DNA of 64,000 nt from an uncultured Treponema sp. (GCA_947177175.1 CAMWTK010000006.1:1039-65038), one strand, 5' to 3'. Counted from the stretch's first letter, positions 16,464 through 58,599 are shown. Translations and numbers: made by a program. Notes: generated from the sequence alone by a model not told the origin.

Positions 16464-18635
16464 CTATTTTGTTATAGTGCTGGCTGTGCCGCGGATTGTT
16501 GTTCCGTTTGACAAATAAATTCCGTCGATTCCCTCTATCTCATTCCATTCCTCTTTCGTGCCGCCGTATACTATCTGGCAAAGATTGCTGCTGTTGGCGA
16601 ACGCGTATTTTTCGATTTTTTTCACGCTCGCAGGAATCGATATGCGTTTGAGATGCATGCTTTCGCTGAACGTGTTTGCTCCGATTTCCGTAACGCCGTC
16701 GGGAATTGTCAGCTCGTCTGCAAGACCGAATGCGATTCCGCCGCTGATTTTTACGCCATCACGCATCTCCATAGCCTGTATGCCGTCCGTGCAGGTCACA
16801 GTCGCCTCAAGCAGATCTGGATTGCATGACAGTCCCTTAATGTTGCGCCACTGCTCCAGCGTTCCGCCGAAACGTACCGATTTGAGATGCTGATTGAATC
16901 CAAACTCGCCGATTTCTCTCACGCTCTCTGGAATCTCAAGGTTCTCAATGTGAGTACCGTTGAATACGTGGCTGAGAATTTTCTTTACGCCGTCAGGAAT
17001 CGTTATGCTTTGCGCTTCTGTGTCCATGCATTCATAAACAACAGTGCCTAAAATGCGAAGTCCGTTCCGTTCCTCCGTGTGCAGATCGCCGTCGGCACAG
17101 GTTACGTTCGCCGCAAGAAGCTCGCAGTTGGAGAAAATCCCCGGGATTTCAGTCCACTGCTCGGTCGTTCCGCCAAAACATACCGATTTTAACGACGAGC
17201 AGCCATGAAATGCATTATATCCGATTTCTTTCATACTTGCAGGAATCGTCACACTTTCAAGAGATTTGCAACCGCTGAACGCCCGCCCGCTGATTTGGGT
17301 TATACCGTCAGGAATCATCACGGATTTCGGAACATGTCCCGTATGCCCCACAGCAGAGAAACCAGTGATTTTCATTCCTGCGACTGGCTCATAAAACATG
17401 CCATCGGCGCAATGTGCTTTTTTTGAGAGCAGTTCGGGATTGCAGGCAACAAGCCTTTTCCACTGCTCCTTTGTGCCGCCAAAGCGAATGGTTTTCAATT
17501 TCTTGCAGCCGATGAACGCGTCCGCCTCGATTTTCTTTACGCTGGCTGGAATAACAATGCTTTTTATCGCACTGTGTGCAAACGCTTCCGTACCGATTTC
17601 GGCAAGTCCGTCCGCAATAATGATGTGCCTGCTGCACCAATGCCTAAACGCGCCGTCCGCAATGTTTGTCAATCCGCTCGGAATCGTCATTTTTGCGGGA
17701 AGCACGGTGCCCCGTTTTTTGTCAAAGAAAGCAAAACCGTCCACTGTGCAGACGGTTTCCCCGATGATGCTCAGCCCGCCGGATTTTCTTGCGTCAAGTG
17801 ACCCATCGGAACAAACGATGTTTCCTTCCAGTCCAAAGAGTTGGAACATTTTAATCGCGGCTTCCTTAGTTCCTCCGAAACGGATTTCTTTGAGATTCTC
17901 GCACTTTTCAAACGCAAAGGGTGAAATTTCCGTCACGGTCGCAGGAATCGTTATGCTCTCAAGCGACATACATCCGCAGAACACACGGTGGTCGATTTTT
18001 CTGATTTCGCAGAGGAGCATGATTTCCTTAAGCGACGTGCAGCCCTGGAACGCACTTGCTCCGATTTCAGCCACGCTTTCGGGAATCGTAACGCGTTCAA
18101 GTGACGTGCATTTCGCGAACGCGCCCGCCGCAATGCCGGTAACGAGCGCAGGAATTGTCACGGGTGAAGGAAGTCCGTCCGAATATCCGTATACGGTGTT
18201 GCCGCTCATGAGCAGACCGTCCACATGCTCAAAGTCCACAATGCCGTCAGAACAGGAAATTTTCACGGTGAGCAGGTTCTGATTATAACCAAGATTGGCG
18301 ACATTAAGCCACTGCGCCTTCATGCCGCCGAAACGGATTTCCTTGAGGCTCGTGCAGCCCGCAAACGCTTTTGTTCCGATGTGCGTAACACTCGCCGGAA
18401 TCGTAACGCTTTCAAGCGAGGTGCAGTCCGCGAACGCATTGCGGGAGATACCCTTGACGCTGCCCGGCAGCACCACGCTTTTCAATGACGCGCATCCCCT
18501 GAATGCATTGTACCCGAAAAAGTCGTATCCGATTTCAGTCACTTCGCTCGGAACAGGGATATGCTCCGGGATGTTTTTTTCGTAGCCGACCAAAATCCCG
18601 TCTCTCACTATAAGATAGTTCGGTATGTTTCTCAT
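16464..18635 (-). CDS. BspA/TpLRR-type leucine-rich repeat protein, about 723 aa
   Basis: Repeated IxxxAFxxCxSLxSVTIPxSVxxIG; start taken at ATG 18635; lower GC. Confidence 0.88.
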   Translation of the reverse strand: MRNIPNYLIVRDGILVGYEKNIPEHIPVPSEVTEIGYDFFGYNAFRGCASLKSVVLPGSVKGISRNAFADCTSLESVTIPASVTHIGTKAFAGCTSLKEIRFGGMKAQWLNVANLGYNQNLLTVKISCSDGIVDFEHVDGLLMSGNTVYGYSDGLPSPVTIPALVTGIAAGAFAKCTSLERVTIPESVAEIGASAFQGCTSLKEIMLLCEIRKIDHRVFCGCMSLESITIPATVTEISPFAFEKCENLKEIRFGGTKEAAIKMFQLFGLEGNIVCSDGSLDARKSGGLSIIGETVCTVDGFAFFDKKRGTVLPAKMTIPSGLTNIADGAFRHWCSRHIIIADGLAEIGTEAFAHSAIKSIVIPASVKKIEADAFIGCKKLKTIRFGGTKEQWKRLVACNPELLSKKAHCADGMFYEPVAGMKITGFSAVGHTGHVPKSVMIPDGITQISGRAFSGCKSLESVTIPASMKEIGYNAFHGCSSLKSVCFGGTTEQWTEIPGIFSNCELLAANVTCADGDLHTEERNGLRILGTVVYECMDTEAQSITIPDGVKKILSHVFNGTHIENLEIPESVREIGEFGFNQHLKSVRFGGTLEQWRNIKGLSCNPDLLEATVTCTDGIQAMEMRDGVKISGGIAFGLADELTIPDGVTEIGANTFSESMHLKRISIPASVKKIEKYAFANSSNLCQIVYGGTKEEWNEIEGIDGIYLSNGTTIRGTASTITK

Positions 18636-18864
18636 GATTTTTCTCCCTTGCGTTTTACGTCCGCCGACCTGTTTTGCGTGAGAATTTGCACCGCAACTTC
18701 CCTGTCGTAACCAAGCGTTCAAAAGCCGTGCGAGTTGACACTTTTTGGTAAAAAATGTCCGCTTTCCAAAGAGCGGAAACAGACAGGCGCGACAAAAGTC
18801 CTGCGCCCGCCCGTTTCCGCCATGCTGTGCTATCTCTCCGGGAACGCGTCATGGAGAGCCGTCA

Positions 18865-19488
18865 TCACTGAATGCGCTGGGGTGTCAGCTTCGGAGCCTC
18901 GAATACATCAGCATAATCACCGTCCGTGCAGTGGATGACCATATCGTAATCATAGCCAGAACAAGTTCTACGAATATGATCCTGCCATGTTTCCTGCCAT
19001 TGTGCCTTTGTACCACCGTAGTACACCTCTTTTAGCTGAAAAAAATCAAATGCCCGAGAAAACAAAGGCTCGTATTTCCCTGTCTGATATTCTTCTGCTT
19101 CGGCAAGAGATGAGACATGATGTTTTAACAAATCCCTACGTTCATGATCAGGTCTCATCCTGCCGATAACGCGTAGACTGGCAGGAATCGTTATAATTTT
19201 AAGAGCAGGACAGTCTGCGAATGCACTACTGTAGATTTCCGTCACGCCCTCACAAATCTTAACCTGCTTAAGACGTGCACAACAGCGAAACGCACCTATG
19301 CCAATGTCATACACAGTGCCAGGAATCGTCACGCTTTCAAGCAAATGGCACTCTCTGAGTGCATCACTGGCTATTCCGCATATGCCATCAGGAATTTCAA
19401 GGTTCTTGGGAATCCCGAAATTAAACCCCGTTATGACGGCTCTGCTTTCATTCAGATACCGTGGAAACACATTCTCTTCATCTTTCAT
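18865..19488 (-). CDS. Short BspA-type LRR protein
   Basis: LESVTIPGTVYDIGIGAF repeats, YYGGTKAQW...HCTDG; AAGGGG RBS; low GC. Confidence 0.82.
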   Translation of the reverse strand: MKDEENVFPRYLNESRAVITGFNFGIPKNLEIPDGICGIASDALRECHLLESVTIPGTVYDIGIGAFRCCARLKQVKICEGVTEIYSSAFADCPALKIITIPASLRVIGRMRPDHERRDLLKHHVSSLAEAEEYQTGKYEPLFSRAFDFFQLKEVYYGGTKAQWQETWQDHIRRTCSGYDYDMVIHCTDGDYADVFEAPKLTPQRIQ

Positions 19489-19849: not shown

Positions 19850-19957
19850 TTAGTTTTTTCCGCGCCGCTCATAGCTTGCGGATTCCTGCGCCTCCGCTTC
19901 GGTCATAAAAACCGATCGTGGTTTTCCCGACGAATTGAAACACGTGCTGCTTTTCAT
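19850..19957 (-). pseudogene. Possible 35 aa remnant ORF coupled to the DUF6261-like gene
   Basis: ATGA overlap with upstream stop; MKSSTCFNSSGKPRSVFMTEAEAQESASYE. Confidence 0.25.
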
Positions 19958-20688
19958 CAGTCATCCGCTCCCGCGCCTGCCGCGCCGCTCTTCTTCTTTC
20001 CGCCCAATACTTCCTGCTTAAAATGCTCAATCTCGGTGTTGGCGTAGTCGATGAACGCGGCGTAGGCTTCCTCGCCCTCAAGCAGGGCGTGGGCGTTCAC
20101 GTGCAGCACGAGCATGCGGTATGCCTCGTCGCTCGCTGCCCGCGCCGCTTTGAGTGCGCCCGCTGTCTTTGCTGAGCGTTCGTCCGTGCGCTGACCCGTG
20201 AGCGAGCGTACTTCTTCGTTCGCCGCCTTGAGCCGCTCCACGAACGCTGTGAGCGACAGCATCTTCACCTGCTCGGCGAACTTGCCTTCCAAGTCCTGCA
20301 CGAAGTTCACGAGCAAGCCCGTCTCCTTGTCCAGCTGCGCCTGCACGTCGATTTTGTAGTCCTTGACGTGCTGTTGCAAAACTTTCGCCGCCTCCGCCAT
20401 GTCCTCCACGGGGAAGCTCGCGTAGCCCGCCACGGCCTTCTTGTAGCCCGCGTAGAGCTGGTCGCGCAGGCGGTCAGCCGCCGCGATTTTGTCGGTCGTG
20501 AGGCTCTTCGCGCTGGTTTGCAGGTTCTCGTCCTCCGCCGTGACCGCCGCCCGCAGTGCCTTCACCTGCGCCGCGCATTTCTCGGACACCGCCACGTCTT
20601 TCTCCGCGCGCTCCGCCATGTTGGACACGAACAGGAAATGCGCCGCGTTGTTCATGCCGCCCACATATACCGTCTGGATTTCTTTCAT
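19957..20688 (-). CDS. DUF6261-like all-helical protein (copy 1)
   Basis: MNNAAHFLF, ADRLRD, LDKETGLL, FIDYANTEI resemble recalled Bacteroidota DUF6261 proteins; AAGGAG RBS. Confidence 0.75.
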   Translation of the reverse strand: MKEIQTVYVGGMNNAAHFLFVSNMAERAEKDVAVSEKCAAQVKALRAAVTAEDENLQTSAKSLTTDKIAAADRLRDQLYAGYKKAVAGYASFPVEDMAEAAKVLQQHVKDYKIDVQAQLDKETGLLVNFVQDLEGKFAEQVKMLSLTAFVERLKAANEEVRSLTGQRTDERSAKTAGALKAARAASDEAYRMLVLHVNAHALLEGEEAYAAFIDYANTEIEHFKQEVLGGKKKSGAAGAGADD

Positions 20689-20715
20689 AGGAATGCTCCT
20701 TTGCCATATTGTTTT

Positions 20716-20735
20716 GCCGCCGCATACGCGGCGGT
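20716..20735. other. GC hairpin between array 1 and the DUF6261 RBS
   Basis: CCGCCGC-atac-GCGGCGG. Confidence 0.65.
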
Positions 20736-21057
20736 ATTTGTTGTGCCAAATTTGTACTTGTCGAGTGCTGAGAGGGTATCTTGCGCACCAAATTCGTGTT
20801 TGTCGAATGCTGACAGGGCATTTTGTGCGCCAAATTCGTACTTGTTGAGTGCTGGGAATGAATTTGTTGTACCAAATTCATGTTTGTTGACTGCGGGCAA
20901 GGAATTTTGTGTACCAAATTTGCACTTGTCGGTTGCTGACAAAGAATTTGTTGCACAAAATTCGTGTTTGTTGAATGCTGGTAAGGAATTTTGTGTATCA
21001 AATTCGTATTTGTTGAATGCTGACAAAGAATTTGTTGTGCAAAATGCATATTTGTTG
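20736..21057. repeat. Degenerate tandem array, 8 x 42 bp
   Basis: Units start at 20736, 20778, 20820, 20862, 20904, 20946, 20988, 21030. Confidence 0.95.
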
Positions 21058-21092
21058 GGAGAAGAAAGCCTGTCAGCAATGATTTTTGGGGT

Positions 21093-21211
21093 CTTGGGGT
21101 GCAACCCCAAGCTGTGCTGGGAAAGGGTGAGGGGTTGGGAGAGGGAAAACCCCGCTTCGGAAGTAGAGGGTTTTCCCTCTCCCAAGAAAGTTCCCACCGC
21201 TTCCAAGCGGT
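21093..21211 (+). repeat. Dispersed three-hairpin element (REP/MITE-like), copy A
   Basis: High similarity to 38194-38313; three stem-loops. Confidence 0.85.
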
Positions 21212-21226
21212 AAAAAACCGCGTTCA

Positions 21227-21255
21227 TTGCAGAAATCCCCCGCTTTCGCTATAAT
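21227..21255 (+). promoter_or_regulatory. Sigma70 promoter of valS
   Basis: TTGCAG-17-TATAAT. Confidence 0.75.
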
Positions 21256-21289: not shown

Positions 21290-24016
21290 ATGAAAGCGAT
21301 TGAACTGGAGAAGGCATACAATCCCAAGGATTTTGAGGACCGCATTTACGCGGCATGGGTGGAGCAGGGGCATTTCCGCCCGCACAGCGACGCGGATTCC
21401 CCCGTGCACGGGCGCGCGGGGCGCACGGACACCACATACACGGTGGTCATTCCGCCGCCGAACGTGACGGGCGTTCTGCACATGGGGCACGCGCTCAACA
21501 ACACGTTGCAGGACGTTGTGGTGCGCTACCACCGTATGTGCGGCGACGACACGCTGTGGGTTCCCGGCACCGACCATGCGGGCATTGCCACGCAGAACGT
21601 GGTGGAGCGGCAGCTCAAGAAAGAGGGCAAGAGCCGCAAGGACCTGGGGCGCGAGGCGTTCCTTGAGCGCACTTGGGCAGTGAAGCGCGACCATCATGCG
21701 ACCATCGTCCGGCAGCAGCAGACGCTCGGCAACAGCGTGGACTGGTCGCGCGAGCGGTTCACGATGGACGAGGGGCTGACAAAGGCCGTCCGCGACGTGT
21801 TCGTCACGCTGTACGAGCGCGGGCTGATATACAAGGGGCAGTACCTCGTCAACTGGTGTCCGCGCTGCGGCACTGCCCTTGCGGACGACGAGGTTGACCA
21901 CATCGACACGAACGGCGCGATGTATCATCTGTATTATGAATTCGCCGACGGCAGCGGAAAGATCGAGGTGGCAACGACTCGCCCGGAGACGTTTTTCGGC
22001 GACACGGCGGTCGCGGTCAATCCCGACGACGAACGCTACCGTTCGCTCGTGGGAAAGACGCTCCGCCTGCCGCTGACGGGCAAGGAGATTCCGATCATTG
22101 CCGACGCGTATGTCGATAAGGAATTCGGGACGGGCATGGTGAAGATTACGCCCGCGCACGACCCCAACGACTGGGAAGTGGGCAAACGCCACGGCCTAGA
22201 GGTGGTCAACCTGCTGAATCCCGACGGCACGCTCAACGAGAACGTGCCAGAAAAATACCGCGGGCTGACGTGCGAGAAGGCGCGCGCGCTGGTCGTCGCC
22301 GACCTGACGGAGGCGGGGCTGTTCAAGGGCGAGGAGAAGCTGACGCATTCGGTGGGGCATTGCTACCGCTGCAAGACCGTGGTCGAGCCGTACCTGTCGT
22401 TCCAGTGGTTCGTGCGGATGCGCCCGCTCGCCGACAAGGCGCTCGCGGCGTGGAAGAACGGCGACATCGAATTTTTCCCGCGCAAATGGGAGCGCACCTA
22501 CGCGCACTGGATGGAAAATATCCGCGACTGGTGCATCAGCCGTCAGCTGTGGTGGGGGCATCGCATTCCCGTGTGGTACTGCAAGGACTGCGGGGAGATG
22601 ATCGTCAGCCGCACCGACCCCGTGTCGTGTCCCAAGTGCGGCGCGTCCGCCGGTACGCTGGAGCAAGATCCCGACGTGCTGGACACCTGGTTCAGCGCGT
22701 GGCTGTGGCCGTTCAGCACGCTCGGCTGGCCGGAAGACACGCCCGACCTGAAAAAATTCTATCCGACTTCCGCGCTCGTGACCGCCTACGACATCATTTT
22801 CTTCTGGGTGAGCCGCATGATCATGGCGGGGCTGGAATTCACGGGCAAAGCCCCGTTCCACGACATTTATATCCACGGGCTGGTGCGCGACAAGCAGGGG
22901 CGCAAGATGAGCAAGTCGCTCGGCAACGGCATTGACCCGCGGGATGTCATCGAGCAGTACGGCGCGGACGCGCTCAAATTCACGCTGTCGTTCCTCTGCG
23001 CGCAGGGGCAGGACATCCTGATCGACAACGAAAGCTTCAAAATGGGCAGCCGATTCTGCAACAAAGTTTGGAACGCGAGCCGCTACATTCTGGGCAACTT
23101 GGAGGGGCGCACGCTCATTCCCGTGGCGGACAGCGACCTAACCGAACTCGACCGGTGGATGTACGTCGCGCTGGATAAGGCGACCCGCGACGTGCGCTCC
23201 GCGTTGGGCGGCTACCGCTACAATGACGCGGCGAGCACCGTGTACGAATTCTTTTGGAACTGTTTCTGCGACTGGTACGTGGAGGCGACCAAGCTGAGCT
23301 TCCGCGGCGATGACGAGCACGAAAAAGACCGCGCGGTTTCCGTCCTGCTCAACGTGCTGGAGGAAAGTCTCCGCCTGCTGCATCCGTTCATTCCGTTCGT
23401 GACCGAAGAGATTTACGGGAAGTTGCCGCGCGCGCAGATTATCGCCAACCGCCGCCAGGCGGGGACGCAGCGCATTCTGCCGAACGACGACTATGATTCG
23501 CTGCTGGTGAACGCGCCGTTCCCTGCCGCGAGCGACGACCGGAAGGACGAGACGGTTGCCGCGCGGTTTGCCGCTGTGCAGGACGTGATTCGGGCGGTGC
23601 GCGGCTTGCGCAACGAGTGCGGCATTGATCCCGCCGTAAAGCTGCATATCGCGCTGCACGTCGTTCCGGGCAGCGATGCCGAAAGCTGCCGCGAGAAGAC
23701 CGACTTGATCTGCCTGCTCGCGGGCGTGTCGGACATCGACTTTGTGGACGCGAAGCCCGCGCAGTCGATCGGCACGGTCGGTCCGGGCTTTGAGGCATTC
23801 ATTTTGATTGACGCCGCCATCAACAGGGAGCAGCTGCGCGCGCGCTTTCAGAAAGACATCGAGAAAACGACTGCCGAAGCCGCGCGCACGGAGGCAAAGC
23901 TGGGCGGCAAGTTCGCCGAGCACGCGCCCGCGGAGCTGGTGCAGGCAGAGCGCGAGAAGCTCGACGAGGCGAAAAGGCGCATAAAAACCTTGCATTCGTA
24001 TATTTCTGCGTTATAA
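21290..24016 (+). CDS. valS: Valine--tRNA ligase
   Basis: PPPNVTGVLHMGH, DWCISRQLWWGH, KMSKS, C-terminal coiled coil. Confidence 0.98.
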   Translation: MKAIELEKAYNPKDFEDRIYAAWVEQGHFRPHSDADSPVHGRAGRTDTTYTVVIPPPNVTGVLHMGHALNNTLQDVVVRYHRMCGDDTLWVPGTDHAGIATQNVVERQLKKEGKSRKDLGREAFLERTWAVKRDHHATIVRQQQTLGNSVDWSRERFTMDEGLTKAVRDVFVTLYERGLIYKGQYLVNWCPRCGTALADDEVDHIDTNGAMYHLYYEFADGSGKIEVATTRPETFFGDTAVAVNPDDERYRSLVGKTLRLPLTGKEIPIIADAYVDKEFGTGMVKITPAHDPNDWEVGKRHGLEVVNLLNPDGTLNENVPEKYRGLTCEKARALVVADLTEAGLFKGEEKLTHSVGHCYRCKTVVEPYLSFQWFVRMRPLADKALAAWKNGDIEFFPRKWERTYAHWMENIRDWCISRQLWWGHRIPVWYCKDCGEMIVSRTDPVSCPKCGASAGTLEQDPDVLDTWFSAWLWPFSTLGWPEDTPDLKKFYPTSALVTAYDIIFFWVSRMIMAGLEFTGKAPFHDIYIHGLVRDKQGRKMSKSLGNGIDPRDVIEQYGADALKFTLSFLCAQGQDILIDNESFKMGSRFCNKVWNASRYILGNLEGRTLIPVADSDLTELDRWMYVALDKATRDVRSALGGYRYNDAASTVYEFFWNCFCDWYVEATKLSFRGDDEHEKDRAVSVLLNVLEESLRLLHPFIPFVTEEIYGKLPRAQIIANRRQAGTQRILPNDDYDSLLVNAPFPAASDDRKDETVAARFAAVQDVIRAVRGLRNECGIDPAVKLHIALHVVPGSDAESCREKTDLICLLAGVSDIDFVDAKPAQSIGTVGPGFEAFILIDAAINREQLRARFQKDIEKTTAEAARTEAKLGGKFAEHAPAELVQAEREKLDEAKRRIKTLHSYISAL

Positions 24017-35462: not shown

Positions 35463-36137
35463 CTATGCCACGCTTGCGTTTGCTTTGGCAATCTCAACGT
35501 CGGCTTTTGCGGCGAAATCCGCGTACTCCGCATTCACCGCGCCCATTGCCGTGAGGTAGGGCACGAGCTTTTCGTTGATTGCGGCGAGCAGGGGCTTCTT
35601 TATCGAGTATGCCGACTCGCCTTTTGCGGCGGTCGCGGTGTCGTTGGCGGCGTTGAACTCGTCCTGCGCGGTGCGGAGCGAGGCGATTAAATCGGCAACG
35701 CCGTCGAGCGACTTGATTGCGTCGGCAAGACTTTCCGCGGCGAAGTCCTCCAGCATCGATTCAATCAAAGAAGATTCGCGCGCGTAGGTCTCATTCACAA
35801 TTGACTTGCCGTACTTGTCGTAGGTGGCGAGCAGGCGTTCGGCGGCGGCTTTCTTTGCGGCGATGGGAATCGCCCCGTAGCCCGAAAGCAGCGTGCCGAG
35901 CGAGCGGATTATCTCGTCGCGCTTCGCGTCCGCGTCCTCGAGCGACCGGGACACCTTGTCCGCCTTGATTGCCGTGGTGATTTTGGCGGAGAGCGTCTCC
36001 ACCTCGCCCATGATCGCCGCGAGCGCGGCATCTTTCGCGACCGCACCGTCCTTGGCGGCCTCCTTGTAGATGCGCACGAGCGCGTCCGATACGGTGTCCG
36101 CGTCGGTGATGCGGACGTTCTGTTTCACTTTTTTCAC
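35463..36137 (-). CDS. DUF6261-like all-helical protein (copy 2), 224 aa
   Basis: GTG start with AAGGAGG RBS; ADAKRD...GY...P...AAERL...Y pattern shared with copy 1. Confidence 0.72.
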   Translation of the reverse strand: MKKVKQNVRITDADTVSDALVRIYKEAAKDGAVAKDAALAAIMGEVETLSAKITTAIKADKVSRSLEDADAKRDEIIRSLGTLLSGYGAIPIAAKKAAAERLLATYDKYGKSIVNETYARESSLIESMLEDFAAESLADAIKSLDGVADLIASLRTAQDEFNAANDTATAAKGESAYSIKKPLLAAINEKLVPYLTAMGAVNAEYADFAAKADVEIAKANASVA

Positions 36138-36149
36138 ACGTTCCTCCTT

Positions 36150-36165
36150 CGGCGGATAACCGCCG
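36150..36165. other. GC hairpin between array 2 and the DUF6261 RBS
   Basis: CGGCGG-ataa-CCGCCG. Confidence 0.6.
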
Positions 36166-36167
36166 TT

Positions 36168-36505
36168 TTTTGCTTGTCGCCCGCCTTTGCGTCGAGAAGC
36201 GAACAAAACTTTGTTTTCTGCCCGTTTTTGCGTCAGGACAAAAAACAAATGTTTGTTTGTTCCTCGCTTTCGCGTTGGGGAGCGAAAAAACATTTGTTCG
36301 CTCGCCGTTTTTGCGTCCGGGCGAGCAAAAAACATTTGTTTGTTCTTCGCTTTCGCGTTGGGGAACGAAAAAACATTTGTTCGTTCGCCGTTTTTGCGTT
36401 TGGGCGGGCAAAAAACATTTGTTCGTTGCCCGCTTTTGCGTTGGGGAGCGAAAAAACATTTGTTCGTTCGCCACTTTCGCGTTGGGCAGACAAAAAATTT
36501 TTGTT
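36168..36505. repeat. Degenerate tandem array, about 8 units mostly alternating 42/41 bp, each a stem-loop
   Basis: TTTGTT anchors at 36210, 36252, 36293, 36335, 36376, 36418, 36459, 36500. Confidence 0.93.
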
Positions 36506-36554
36506 TGCCGTGCGCCATGAAAAGAAAACCCGCCCGCGCCGAAGCGGGGCGGGG

Positions 36555-36620: not shown

Positions 36621-37049
36621 CTAATTCTTGCTCAGAAGTATCGGTGCGCAAAGACCGGGTTTGCGGTATTCATCAGGGATGCGCCTACCTTTGATGCCCG
36701 TCGATATGTTTGACGGGGCGGGTTTTCCTGTGAACTGTACTCGGTGTTCGCCGCTCGGTTCCCATGAGTCCGCGACAAAGACTTCCTGCACTATGCCACC
36801 TATGACGGCAAAGACATATTTGTAGTCCTTTACGGTATTAAGTGAAACATTATACCACGACCCGCGCGCGGCCTCGTACAGGCTACCGCACTCCTCCACC
36901 ATGCGGTCACTTGTCTTGACGATGACGTACTTGAATTTTGGCTCTTTGTAGCAGGTTGCGGACGGGTCTCTGACTTTCACTGTAACATGCACGGAATGTA
37001 CCTTATGGCAGTCAGGACACTCAATATCGAAATCGACAGAATTTGTCAT
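36621..37049 (-). CDS. Hypothetical protein with CxxC..H knuckle and YEAARGSW domain
   Basis: GGAG RBS, lower GC; resembles a domain recalled from LEM-3-like GIY-YIG proteins. Confidence 0.65.
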   Translation of the reverse strand: MTNSVDFDIECPDCHKVHSVHVTVKVRDPSATCYKEPKFKYVIVKTSDRMVEECGSLYEAARGSWYNVSLNTVKDYKYVFAVIGGIVQEVFVADSWEPSGEHRVQFTGKPAPSNISTGIKGRRIPDEYRKPGLCAPILLSKN

Positions 37050-37153
37050 GCTGTATGTCTCCAAAGTATTTGGTGTGGATCGCACGGAAGGGCGGTGCGC
37101 TTCCGTGCTGAGGTTTGCCGCGCTGTTGCTCCCGTGCGGCGGGGGAGTGCGGG

Positions 37154-37942
37154 TTAGTTCGCGGCAGGTGTTACGGTAATCGTTGAAACATCAATTCCGC
37201 CAGTACCATTACCATCGCTTTTTTTCGCTCCGTTTCGGCTGAATACAAGGTAGACCGTGCCTGCGGCACTGACCGTACCCGAAACCGTTTTCTCAGAAGA
37301 TGCCGTCACTTCATCAGTCACGACCGTTCCGAGGACTTTTCCGTCAGCATCTACAAAAGCCACTTGAAACGGACCGCCAGTCGGATTGTCAGAGTCCTTA
37401 GCTCCCTTGAAAGTTACCTCTGCTGTTACCGTTCCTGCGCCGTCAACAGGAATACTGACGTAACGGTCAAGAGAGTCGATTGCGATACCGTTTGAGATGT
37501 CGCTGTCCGCACCGCCGTTGTACTTGAGTGCGGTGATAGTAGGAGCAAGGTCAGATATTGCTCTTTCGTTCTTCTCATGCGTCGCACGGAAACGGAGCGT
37601 TGCCACCTTAGAGCCTTTCCATGAAAGTGAAGCTTCGTTGGTAAGTGCTTTTGTGGTCAATTCTTTTGCTATCGGAGAGTTAATCACATCTTTTGCGCTC
37701 AAGTCCCAATCGCTTATATCAGCGGCAACAATTCCATTTTCTCCGCCCGTGAAGCTGTAAGTCTTCGCAGTTGCAGGAGTGCCTGTTTCCGGCGCAGGTG
37801 CTTCCGGCTTCGGCTTGTCTTTATCGCCGTCTTCGTTCCCGTTACCGCTGTCGCCGTCGTCACTGTCCGAACACCCAATTGCCCCAAAGAGCAATGCCGT
37901 CGCCGCAAACAGCGCGGCGAGCCTAGAAATTTTCTTCATCAT
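37154..37942 (-). CDS. Spirochaetal lipoprotein with beta-rich, CBM-like domain
   Basis: MMKK...FGAIGC lipobox, acidic linker, GGAGG RBS. Confidence 0.8.
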   Translation of the reverse strand: MMKKISRLAALFAATALLFGAIGCSDSDDGDSGNGNEDGDKDKPKPEAPAPETGTPATAKTYSFTGGENGIVAADISDWDLSAKDVINSPIAKELTTKALTNEASLSWKGSKVATLRFRATHEKNERAISDLAPTITALKYNGGADSDISNGIAIDSLDRYVSIPVDGAGTVTAEVTFKGAKDSDNPTGGPFQVAFVDADGKVLGTVVTDEVTASSEKTVSGTVSAAGTVYLVFSRNGAKKSDGNGTGGIDVSTITVTPAAN

Positions 37943-38193
37943 GATTTACCTCCAGATGAAATATGTGATGATTACATCATACTATACACTGTGGAGAATA
38001 TACCGTTTTTTTTGTAGTTTTCCGACCAATTCGCGTGCGTTTTGGCGGGCGTTTTGCTTGTCCCGGCGCAATTTCCACAAAAACGCCCGTCATTTCCGCT
38101 TTCCCCGCGGCGCACCCGTGCCGCAGTGCGATGCGCTGTTTGCCGAGTTTTCGGAGAAAACTCGTTAAGCAAGGCAACGCCTTGCGACGGGTT

Positions 38194-38313
38194 CTTAGGG
38201 CAGTCGCCCTAAGCCGTGCTGGGGAAAGGAGAGGGTTTGGGAGAGGGAAACCCCCGCTTCGGAAGTAGAGGGGTTTCCCTCTCCCAAGAGGTTCCCTCCG
38301 CTTCCAAGCGGAG
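38194..38313 (+). repeat. Dispersed three-hairpin element, copy B
   Basis: Aligns with 21093-21211 with compensatory substitutions. Confidence 0.85.
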
Positions 38314-38398: not shown

Positions 38399-39304
38399 AT
38401 GATTGCATTGCGTGGCGCACTGACGGCGATGGTTACGCCGATGAACGCAGACGGTTCGGTGGATTACGAGGGATTTCGGAAGAACGTGGCGTTCCAGCTG
38501 GAGAAAGGAATCGACGGGCTTGTGCCGCTGGGGACGACGGGCGAGACCCCGACGCTGGCGGAGGACGAAGAAGAGCGGATGATAACGATCGTGTTGGAGG
38601 CCGTGCGCGCGCATGAGGCGCGGACGGGCAGGCGCGTTCCCGTGGTGGTGGGCGCAGGCTCGAACAACACGGCGGATGCGGTGCGCTACTGCACGAGGGC
38701 AAAGGCGATGGGGGCGGACGCGGCACTGGTCGTCACGCCGTACTACAACAAGCCGAGCGACGAGGGCATTTTCCGCCATTTTGAGGCGGTCGCGCGGGTG
38801 GGCATTCCGATTGTGGTGTACAATATTGCGGGGCGCACGGGAAAGAATATTCCCACGCCGCTGCTCGCGCGGATTGCCGCGCTGCCGAATGTCATCGGCG
38901 TGAAAGAGGCGAGCGGCGACATCAGCCAGATGATGGCGGTCATCGCGACGGTCAAGGCGAAGCGTCCCGATTTTGCCGTGCTCAGCGGGGACGACGCGCT
39001 GACCCTGCCGTTGGTCGCGCTGGGCGGCGACGGCATTGTCTCGGTCGTCTCCAACCTTGCCCCCGCCGAGGTGACGGCGATGACGGCGGCCGCGCTTTCC
39101 GGCGACATGGAAAAGGCGCGCGCGCTGCATTACCGGCTGCTGCCGTTCTTTAAGGCGGCGTTCGTGGACGGCAACCCCACGTCAATCAAATATGCGATGA
39201 ACTGCAAGGGAATGCCCGCCGGTACGGTGCGCCTGCCGCTGGTGGAGGTGACCGACGCGGCAAAGCAGGTGATTGCGGACGCGCTGCGGGAAAGCGGGCT
39301 GTAA
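38399..39304 (+). CDS. dapA: 4-hydroxy-tetrahydrodipicolinate synthase
   Basis: GTTGE, PYYNKP, YNIAGRT, GVKEAS, SGDD. Confidence 0.97.
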   Translation: MIALRGALTAMVTPMNADGSVDYEGFRKNVAFQLEKGIDGLVPLGTTGETPTLAEDEEERMITIVLEAVRAHEARTGRRVPVVVGAGSNNTADAVRYCTRAKAMGADAALVVTPYYNKPSDEGIFRHFEAVARVGIPIVVYNIAGRTGKNIPTPLLARIAALPNVIGVKEASGDISQMMAVIATVKAKRPDFAVLSGDDALTLPLVALGGDGIVSVVSNLAPAEVTAMTAAALSGDMEKARALHYRLLPFFKAAFVDGNPTSIKYAMNCKGMPAGTVRLPLVEVTDAAKQVIADALRESGL

Positions 39305-58367: not shown

Positions 58368-58500
58368 GACAGCCTAAGGTTCGTGGTACTGACAGCTCAG
58401 TGTAAGGGATGCTCACAGTCTCATGTGAGGGCCTGTTACATACCCGTGTGAGGGGTGCTCACAGCCTAATGTGAGGGGTATTAACAGCCTAGTGTGAGGG
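58368..58500. repeat. Degenerate tandem array, 6 x 23 bp, with palindrome CTCACA-N6-TGTGAG
   Basis: Units at 58368, 58391, 58414, 58437, 58460, 58483. Confidence 0.88.
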
Positions 58501-58599
58501 AGAGAAACCTGTACATGGTTTGCATACGCACCTGTACAGGTGCGTGTCGGTCATCTGTTCGTGGTGTTCGGTGTCACTGGGGCAGGAGTGCGGTGCGGG

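Follow-up and report, generated by a model that had tools for sequence, protein, structure and literature searches.

A family of three-hairpin mosaic repeats in gut Treponema that may fold into an intrastrand DNA triplex and recombine at the borders of strain-variable gene islands

The closest described counterpart of the element reported here is the intrastrand triplex motif of E. coli, known as BoxC, PIT or 'TMECO' (Holder et al., 2015, PMC4666352, which cites Hoyne et al., 2000). Its consensus is CCCTCNCCC-N3-6-GGGNGAGGG-N3-GGGNGAGGG, and strain MG1655 carries 23 copies, which are always intergenic, show no strand bias, stand more often upstream of ORFs and have no link to mobile elements (PMC4666352). 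The motif forms a very stable triplex in vitro, as seen by CD and NMR, and in vivo DMS footprinting in E. coli gave no protection (PMC4666352). TMECO loci are rearranged between E. coli strains more than control sites are, and purine-motif triplexes of this kind form in DNA and cannot form in RNA (PMC4666352). Intrastrand triplex repeats are known, then, from E. coli, where the triple helix may or may not matter in vivo.

The DNA analysed here (the window, 64,000 nucleotides from an uncultured Treponema sp.) holds two copies of an intergenic element made of three hairpins (H1, H2 and H3) with a linker between H1 and H2. Like BoxC/TMECO, this element has on one strand, next to each other, a block of pyrimidines, a block of purines and a further purine-rich block that mirrors the latter; the 9-mers (CCCTCTCCC, GGGAGAGGG and GGGTGAGGG) are the same, a T-rich turn of 3 nt separates the G-rich blocks, and T or A of the proposed third strand stands opposite A-T pairs. 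Its copies, too, number tens per genome, are intergenic and without strand bias, lie more often upstream of ORFs, have no known link to mobile elements and seem to occupy strain-variable loci. The two differ in that the order is third strand, purine, pyrimidine (class I) in Treponema, whereas it is pyrimidine, purine, third strand (class II) in TMECO, and in that Treponema has 12 triads, with three A.AT added, against 9. Where TMECO has a loop of 3-6 nt, the Treponema element moreover carries a helical extension of 30 nt that ends in a conserved apical loop; its core is flanked by two more conserved hairpins and occurs in combination with a module X and with 42-bp arrays. The strict TMECO consensus (class II order, short loops) has no match on either strand of the window, blastn against E. 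coli genomes returned no match to the element, and there is no similarity to the MG1655 BoxC loci outside the 9-mers. Given this lack of similarity and the different phylum, we regard the resemblance as analogy and not homology: the Treponema element is probably a convergent analogue of BoxC/TMECO that stands outside that family. The two families are unrelated and belong to different phyla, yet they share these three 9-mers, in opposite order.

The BIME of E. coli, the RIME of rhizobia and the BOX of Streptococcus pneumoniae are mosaic intergenic repeats in which hairpin modules occur in varied combinations and numbers. The Treponema element resembles them in being intergenic and multi-copy and in combining a few modules in various ways (H1, linker, X, H2, H3 and partial tandem copies), but its sequences are unrelated, its modules stand in direct and not alternating orientation, and no three-strand mirror/complement core is known to define those families. 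With the REP/REPIN-RAYT system it shares the character of a short structured intergenic repeat with compensatory stem changes and a conserved GTAG. This GTAG, however, lies in the apical loop instead of at the 5' foot as in REP, the element is 120 nt long with three hairpins instead of a single palindrome of 20-40 nt, its copies are singlets and not inverted doublets, and no RAYT was found in the ~300 kb examined.

Both copies lie on the plus strand where the preliminary description had placed them, copy A at 21093-21211 and copy B at 38194-38313. They are ~84% identical over ~125 aligned bases, and their homology stops at both edges. A 34-mer from the central hairpin matches the window at copies A and B only, with 0 matches expected (100 shuffles). 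The copies fold far better than shuffled sequences on both strands, whether treated as RNA (z-scores of -5.1 to -6.6) or as DNA (-5.4 to -6.1). The stem variants from which compensatory change had been proposed are all present as quoted: those of H1 and H3 are given in Table 1, and the central stem is a perfect 18-bp duplex in both copies, with AAAACCC/GGGTTTT in A and AAACCCC/GGGGTTT in B. The genomic context was likewise described correctly, with DUF6261 genes on one side and valS or dapA downstream; copy B ends 86 nt upstream of the dapA start and stands at the edge of the block that contains the second DUF6261 gene.

Table 1. Parts of the two window copies and their neighbours (positions counted from the first letter of the window).
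Feature	Position	Strand	Remarks
DUF6261 gene	19957-20688	-	left flank of copy A
Junction GAAAGCCTGTCAGCAATGATTTTT	21069..21092	+	between 42-bp tandem array and copy A; common to copy L014a, also abutting a 42-bp array
Copy A H1	21093..21111	+	CTTGGGGT-GCA-ACCCCAAG; folds, with covariation across copies
Copy A linker GGGAAAGGGTGAGGGG	21119..21134	+	proposed third (reverse-Hoogsteen) strand; mirror of purine arm
Copy A TT turn	21135-21136	+	after linker
Copy A central hairpin H2	21137..21183	+	purine arm, CCCC, apical loop, GGG, TTTT, pyrimidine arm
Copy A H2 purine arm GGGAGAGGGAAAA	21137-21149	+	
Copy A H2 apical loop GCTTCGGAAGTAGA	21154-21167	+	conserved
Copy A H2 pyrimidine arm CCCTCTCCC	21175-21183	+	
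Copy A 18-bp perfect inverted repeat	21135-21152 / 21168-21185		
Copy A H3	21196..21211	+	ACCGCTT-CC-AAGCGGT, then A-run
valS	21290-24016	+	right flank of copy A
Second DUF6261 gene	35463-36518	-	1.7 kb left of copy B
ORF without Pfam match	37154-37942	-	left flank of copy B
Module X	38144..38189	+	beside copy B; hairpins CGAGTTTTC-GGA-GAAAACTCG and GCAAGGC-AAC-GCCTTGC, then GACG
Copy B H1	38194..38213	+	CTTAGGGC-AGTC-GCCCTAAG
Copy B linker GGGGAAAGGAGAGGG + TTT turn	38221..38238	+	proposed third strand; 10/12 allowed triads
Copy B H2	38239..38285	+	purine arm GGGAGAGGGAAA, CCCCC, loop, GGGG, TTT, pyrimidine arm CCCTCTCCC
Copy B H2 apical loop GCTTCGGAAGTAGA	38256-38269	+	
Copy B 18-bp perfect inverted repeat	38237-38254 / 38270-38287		
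Copy B H3	38296..38313	+	CTCCGCTT-CC-AAGCGGAG
dapA	38399-39304	+	right flank of copy B

The preliminary description would have been undone if the element had only these two copies and lost its covariation in a larger alignment; many copies exist, and the covariation holds. When species-representative genomes were scanned for the 20-mer CCCGCTTCGGAAGTAGAGGG from the loop, 29 loci were obtained, 27 of them from four Treponema MAGs, and JAAVAM01 alone accounted for ~21 of the matches, on many contigs and in both orientations. The two remaining matches, from Hyphomicrobiales and Verrucomicrobia, share nothing further with the element, are about as numerous as expected for a 20-mer and were dismissed as chance. 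Wherever the window and JAAVAM01 overlap they are ~96% identical, and they therefore represent the same species. A covariance model built from 24 full copies gave 35 strong matches in the collected Treponema DNA, including copies that lack the exact 20-mer. One same-species Treponema MAG has at least 26 copies; three other MAGs and several metagenome assemblies add to these, and further copies were found independently, via neighbouring DUF6261 genes, in other metagenome assemblies. The k-mer depth over the element in DNA runs with this organism is roughly 6-95x that of flanking single-copy genes, a rough figure that implies tens of copies per genome. No viral contig with the loop 20-mer was found, and the gapped H1-H3 pattern recovered two loci only in the JGI metagenome collection. 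All copies lie between called ORFs, and their orientation is unbiased with respect both to the downstream gene (19:15, on rough gene calls) and to local GC skew (15:15). Literature searches on Treponema REP/MITE elements and on DUF6261 yielded nothing relevant. The repeat family is real, previously undescribed and confined to a clade of gut Treponema.

The proposal that the structure is under selection had been made from two copies; compensatory changes in all three stems hold in alignments of 24 and of 31 copies of this dispersed family. In the model alignment of 31 copies, 97.3% of paired cells are standard pairs, against 38-59% in controls with slid partners, and double changes occur in 21 of the 38 pairs. 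The covariation score is 0.238, compared with 0.116 in shuffled alignments (0/500 as high) and 0.03-0.07 with slid partners. An independent MAFFT/RNAalifold run on the 24 copies returned the same three hairpins, with compensatory double changes in 14/38 pairs. Position 4 of the H1 stem, for instance, is GC in 14 copies, AU in 12 and GU in 4, and position 8 is CG in 21 and UA in 7; H2 shows double changes in 11 of its 21 pairs and at least six stem variants; and the closing pair of H3 is CG in 10 copies, UA in 6 and AU in 5. Towards its apex H2 hardly varies (GCTTC..AGTAGAG), also in the copies that were found without using the loop (GCTTCCGAGTAGAG, GCTTCGGCAGTAGAG and GCTTCGAAAGTAGAG), and its conserved apical hairpin is GCTTCGGAAGTAGAG. 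Mismatches of the G.U type (~13) and of the A.C type (9) are about equally frequent and carry no RNA-type strand signal.

The linker between H1 and H2, which is conserved although drawn unpaired, was missed by the preliminary description and is part of the structure. The core reads GGG-AAA-GGGTGAGGG-TTT-GGGAGAGGG-AAAA, the linker being a homopurine mirror of the 5' arm of H2. When the 28 copies that could be parsed are read in the mirror register, 9-12 of 13 positions match. A direct-repeat relation between linker and arm was rejected; even its best offset gives 6-10. Linker and arm mostly depart from G at the same places. Counting along the arm and the reversed linker, the non-G positions are {4, 6} in the main type, {3, 7} in the GGAGGGAGG type, {5, 9} in the GGGGAGGG type, {2, 4, 8, 10, 11} in L021, {6, 8, 10, 12} in L027b, {6, 8, 12} in L016b and {4, 6, 9, ...} in L026a, and they agree between linker and arm at positions 1-11 in eight of ten sequence types. 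In the subfamily of L038, L040 and L041, position 9 has changed from G to A in both linker and arm. Among five subfamilies the true assignment of linkers to arms is the single best of 120 permutations, and shuffled linkers score as well as those observed in 0.04-0.3% of trials. The asymmetric subfamilies L016b and L027b fit the mirror and not the direct repeat. Watson-Crick pairing between the linker and the pyrimidine arm was also rejected: it would set T against T, put the A-tracts on the wrong side and leave the asymmetric subfamilies unable to pair.

Read as triads, 287 of 336 positions in register (85%) are G.GC, A.AT or T.AT, against 25-55% when the linker is slid by 1-3. Of 21 linker T residues, 20 stand opposite an A-T pair and none opposite a G-C pair. 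Linker, purine arm and pyrimidine arm thereby covary three ways across ~8 sequence types, although these subfamilies are related by descent and the independent three-way changes are few. In copy A, 12 of 12 triads between linker and purine arm are allowed; copy B (10/12) and L027a (9/12) are exceptions, and the linker is lost in L011 and L023. The centroid DNA fold leaves the linker unpaired in copy B and partly paired in copy A. The family has three consecutive blocks on one strand, the purine block being complementary to the pyrimidine block and mirrored by the third in a register of 12 triads, where repeats of this kind call for a stem of at least 8, and the geometry of 5' third strand, 3-nt turn, purine, loop and pyrimidine corresponds to a class I intrastrand purine-motif triplex (PMC4666352). 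Triplex formation, in the cell included, is predicted here from covariation, and a triplex would leave the apical loop and the conserved unpaired stretch CCGTGCTGGG unaccounted for.

The element is assembled from modules that recur in different combinations, as in mosaic repeats of the BIME/BOX kind. Module X is a separate two-hairpin repeat found ahead of copy B and of several further copies. In L020 and L025 it interrupts the element precisely at the TTT turn, and in L030 it takes the place of H2; other-strain contigs join X directly to H2 or to the 3' half of H2 plus H3. The orders X-H1-linker-H2-H3, H1-linker-X-H2-H3, H1-linker-X-H3, X-H2-H3 and tandem partial H2'-H3 were seen. Partial tandem copies follow H3 in L017 and L028, and many copies carry a 5' extension, CAAAACGCC..CAAAAC.CGAAGC. 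The unit formed by the element, a 42-bp array and DUF6261 recurs in other assemblies.

Several repeats were seen beside these modules. Module X also occurs without the element at several loci (e.g. L024 2515, L026 1977 and L006 7692). Arrays of 41-42 bp period, with ~7 units and small palindromes, lie just upstream of both window DUF6261 genes (20737-21057 and 36198-36507), and similar arrays occur at L014 1560-1960, L002 1029-1354, L017 7267-7554 and L004 4095-4391. They often abut the 5' end of the element via a shared junction, GAAAGCCTGTCAGCAAYGATTTTT; at L014 the array lies between two inverted elements, the only close inverted pair. Public gene callers translate the array into an ORF of 160-190 aa that overlaps the DUF6261 start by ATGA. 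Its window equivalent, 20685-21227 on the minus strand, runs antisense through copy A, and a coding role for it is unlikely, with a GC3 of 0.46 and an ambiguous codon-position test. In the second DUF6261 gene the first ~120 annotated residues are translated 42-bp array, probably non-coding. Elsewhere in the window, Tandem Repeats Finder reported a 23/46-bp tandem repeat of ~5.7 units at 58369-58501 (consensus ACAGCCTAATGTGAGGGGTGCTC).

Individual copies bear traces of exchange. The left flank, H1, linker and 5' arm of copy A match the MAG copy L014a, and its spacer, H3, A-run and the valS promoter region match L009, the true ortholog; judging by these matches, copy A is a chimera of two copies with the switch inside H2. 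The orthologous copies diverge 2-8x more than their flanks (identity of 87-88% against 98.5% for copy A, and of 93.4% against 97.6-98.6% for copy B), and each window copy is closest to a copy that is not its ortholog.

The preliminary description had also set both copies at the edges of gene islands; these islands proved to be strain-variable, and homology between the window and the MAG ends at element edges. It stops at the 5' edge of copy A and, in the second island on the polyprenyl-synthase side, at the 3' edge of a MAG element that is absent from the window, i.e. at two of the three orthologous sites compared, in a MAG that may itself be misjoined at repeats. At 16.4-20.7 kb the window carries two BspA-type LRR genes of low GC3 and a DUF6261 gene. 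This block is missing at that position from the same-species MAG and is therefore an accessory island. Genes of island type (DUF6261, LRR and relatives of the ORF at 37154) adjoin the element in at least 12 of ~27 loci, all of which were chosen for containing it.

Some properties of the island genes are recorded here in their own right. The BspA-type LRR genes (16464-19488) have a GC3 of 0.42-0.57, compared with ~0.8 in core genes. The second island (36621-37942; see also L019 6200-6966) varies between strains, in that other-strain contigs skip 37144-37869, the ORF at 37154; the place of the second DUF6261 gene and the ORF at 36621 is taken in the MAG by a gene that has an HNH-type motif (CxxC...HH...CPNCH). 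The two DUF6261 genes belong to a very large and highly similar multigene family with more than 4700 database proteins at E<=1e-20. The best 120 matches are 82-92% identical to the window protein and come from gut MAGs of Treponema/Treponemataceae, several per MAG. In the metatranscriptome of run X21, the contig depth over the coding region of the first DUF6261 gene (20300-20570) is 480-2500, against ~33 over valS, which reflects either high expression or many paralogs.

Other accounts of the element must be set against this evidence. As a REPIN/MITE-like non-autonomous transposon, it would be recognised by an HUH/Y1 transposase (RAYT, IS200-type) or another transposase that binds the hairpins, especially the GTAG loop, on single-stranded DNA, and copied to new intergenic sites. 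Tens of similar copies in both orientations, always intergenic, some of them truncated or mosaic, would suit such an element, as would a conserved loop on a covarying stem, suggestive of protein recognition, and copy numbers that seem to vary between related MAGs. The mobilisation by an HUH transposase put forward in the preliminary description nevertheless fares poorly, because the copies are singlets without inverted doublets, their ends (GGGKTCTT... and ...AAGCGGR) are not complementary and form no terminal inverted repeats, and the flanks of 28 copies contain no target-site duplication. A tblastn search with E. coli RayT covered the window and 31 loci (~300 kb, roughly 10% of a genome); its lowest E was 0.56, with no match at E <= 0.5. 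No empty-site contig was found for either locus in DNA runs X1, X2, X4, X7 and X10, whose contigs are short and break at the repeat. The absence from viral contigs also counts against a transposon, which moreover leaves the mirror covariation of linker and arm unaccounted for, and we consider this reading improbable. An attC/integron site was rejected separately, since the element has three separate hairpins and lacks R''/R' core sites, and its copies are dispersed in both orientations.

The ncRNA suggested in the preliminary description fits no better. A multi-copy small RNA, or a cis-acting 5' leader or 3' stabiliser whose three hairpins are selected as RNA, would be in keeping with the strong covariation and with the many copies that stop 20-110 nt short of a downstream start codon in the same orientation; for L014 and L025 this distance is ~20 nt, which leaves no room for a promoter, and transcription must run through the element there. 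The element also appears in metatranscriptome contigs, at ~10x the depth of valS, but Logan contigs are unstranded and multi-mapping inflates this depth, a level that ~10-30 copies in the DNA, or carry-over of DNA, would produce. The window has no Rfam match at gathering score; permissive searching returned generic microRNA-hairpin matches of <=25 bits, against thresholds of 34-190, and a tRNA/tmRNA scan found none. Copies stand in both orientations to the downstream gene, abut the stop codon of an opposing gene at four loci, and show no strand signal in their mismatches. Scanning for the sigma-70 consensus revealed no promoter beside either window copy, and no plus-strand terminator was called within either. 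Copy A is upstream of the sole -10-like box before valS, a perfect TATAAT at 21250-21255, and is thus probably outside the valS transcript; a TTGCAG-N17-TATAAT seen by eye at 21227-21255 has a weak -35 and is a lead only. The T.AT/G.GC third-strand pattern is not an RNA motif and fits a triplex that forms in DNA only (PMC4666352). A structured RNA thus seems to us doubtful, on a par with the transposon. Less probable still is that a G-quadruplex of the G3-N3 runs in linker and purine arm, or a BIME-like platform for a nucleoid protein or gyrase, acts just ahead of promoters to regulate or insulate locally. A canonical motif of at least four G3 tracts with loops of 1-7 nt occurs in 21 of 28 copies, so that another G-rich fold may be what matters; many copies lie immediately upstream of gene starts, an A-run follows H3, and proposals of G4 motifs exist for loci of antigenic variation in spirochaetes (PMC3585125). 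Yet the motif is lost in subfamilies that keep the mirror (L021, L027b and the GGAGGGAGG type), a quadruplex does not require matching A/T positions in linker and arm, and an 18-bp hairpin ties up the purine arm. No protein is known to bind the element, which weakens the protein-site version.

The explanation that we favour, while judging the balance for and against it to be about even, is that of a non-coding, DNA-level mosaic repeat with an intrastrand triplex core, whose copies recombine and lie at the borders of variable islands. On the G-rich strand, H1 and H3 would form two small independent hairpins. The 5' linker GGGAAAGGGTGAGGG would turn back through TTT and run antiparallel along the purine arm GGGAGAGGGAAA, itself Watson-Crick paired to the pyrimidine arm TTTCCCTCTCCC, in 12 triads of the G.GC, A.AT and T.AT types. 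A short GC/AT helix would extend the hairpin and carry on top the conserved loop of 14-15 nt, probably a recognition site. Copies would exchange sequence by homologous recombination or gene conversion, and the element would sit at swap points of accessory genes (DUF6261, BspA-type LRR and others) because it provides portable homology and is capable of non-B DNA. Reports on E. coli BoxC/TMECO match such a placement at strain-variable points, the repeats themselves being unrelated. That the triplex causes or favours recombination, and how new copies originate, are points that we infer.

For these Treponema, the family explains assembly breaks and misjoins at element sites and flags the borders of strain-variable islands, and its covariance model can be used for masking or annotation. 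Covariation evidence, normally used to prove RNA structures, is here applied to a DNA triplex, and the diverged subfamilies are natural variants for direct biophysical and genetic tests. A bolder version, which we think unlikely, is that the triplex is selected in living bacteria and that the element is the working part of a recombination system that shuffles cassettes of a very large family of closely similar surface or accessory genes (DUF6261, BspA-type LRR), with the triplex as initiating lesion and the apical loop as docking site of a dedicated protein. If this were true, the three-way covariation would be evolutionary proof of a selected intrastrand DNA triplex, unlike the in vivo probing of E. 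coli BoxC. Pilin variation in Neisseria is triggered by a G4, and cassette shuffling in Treponema would then resemble it.
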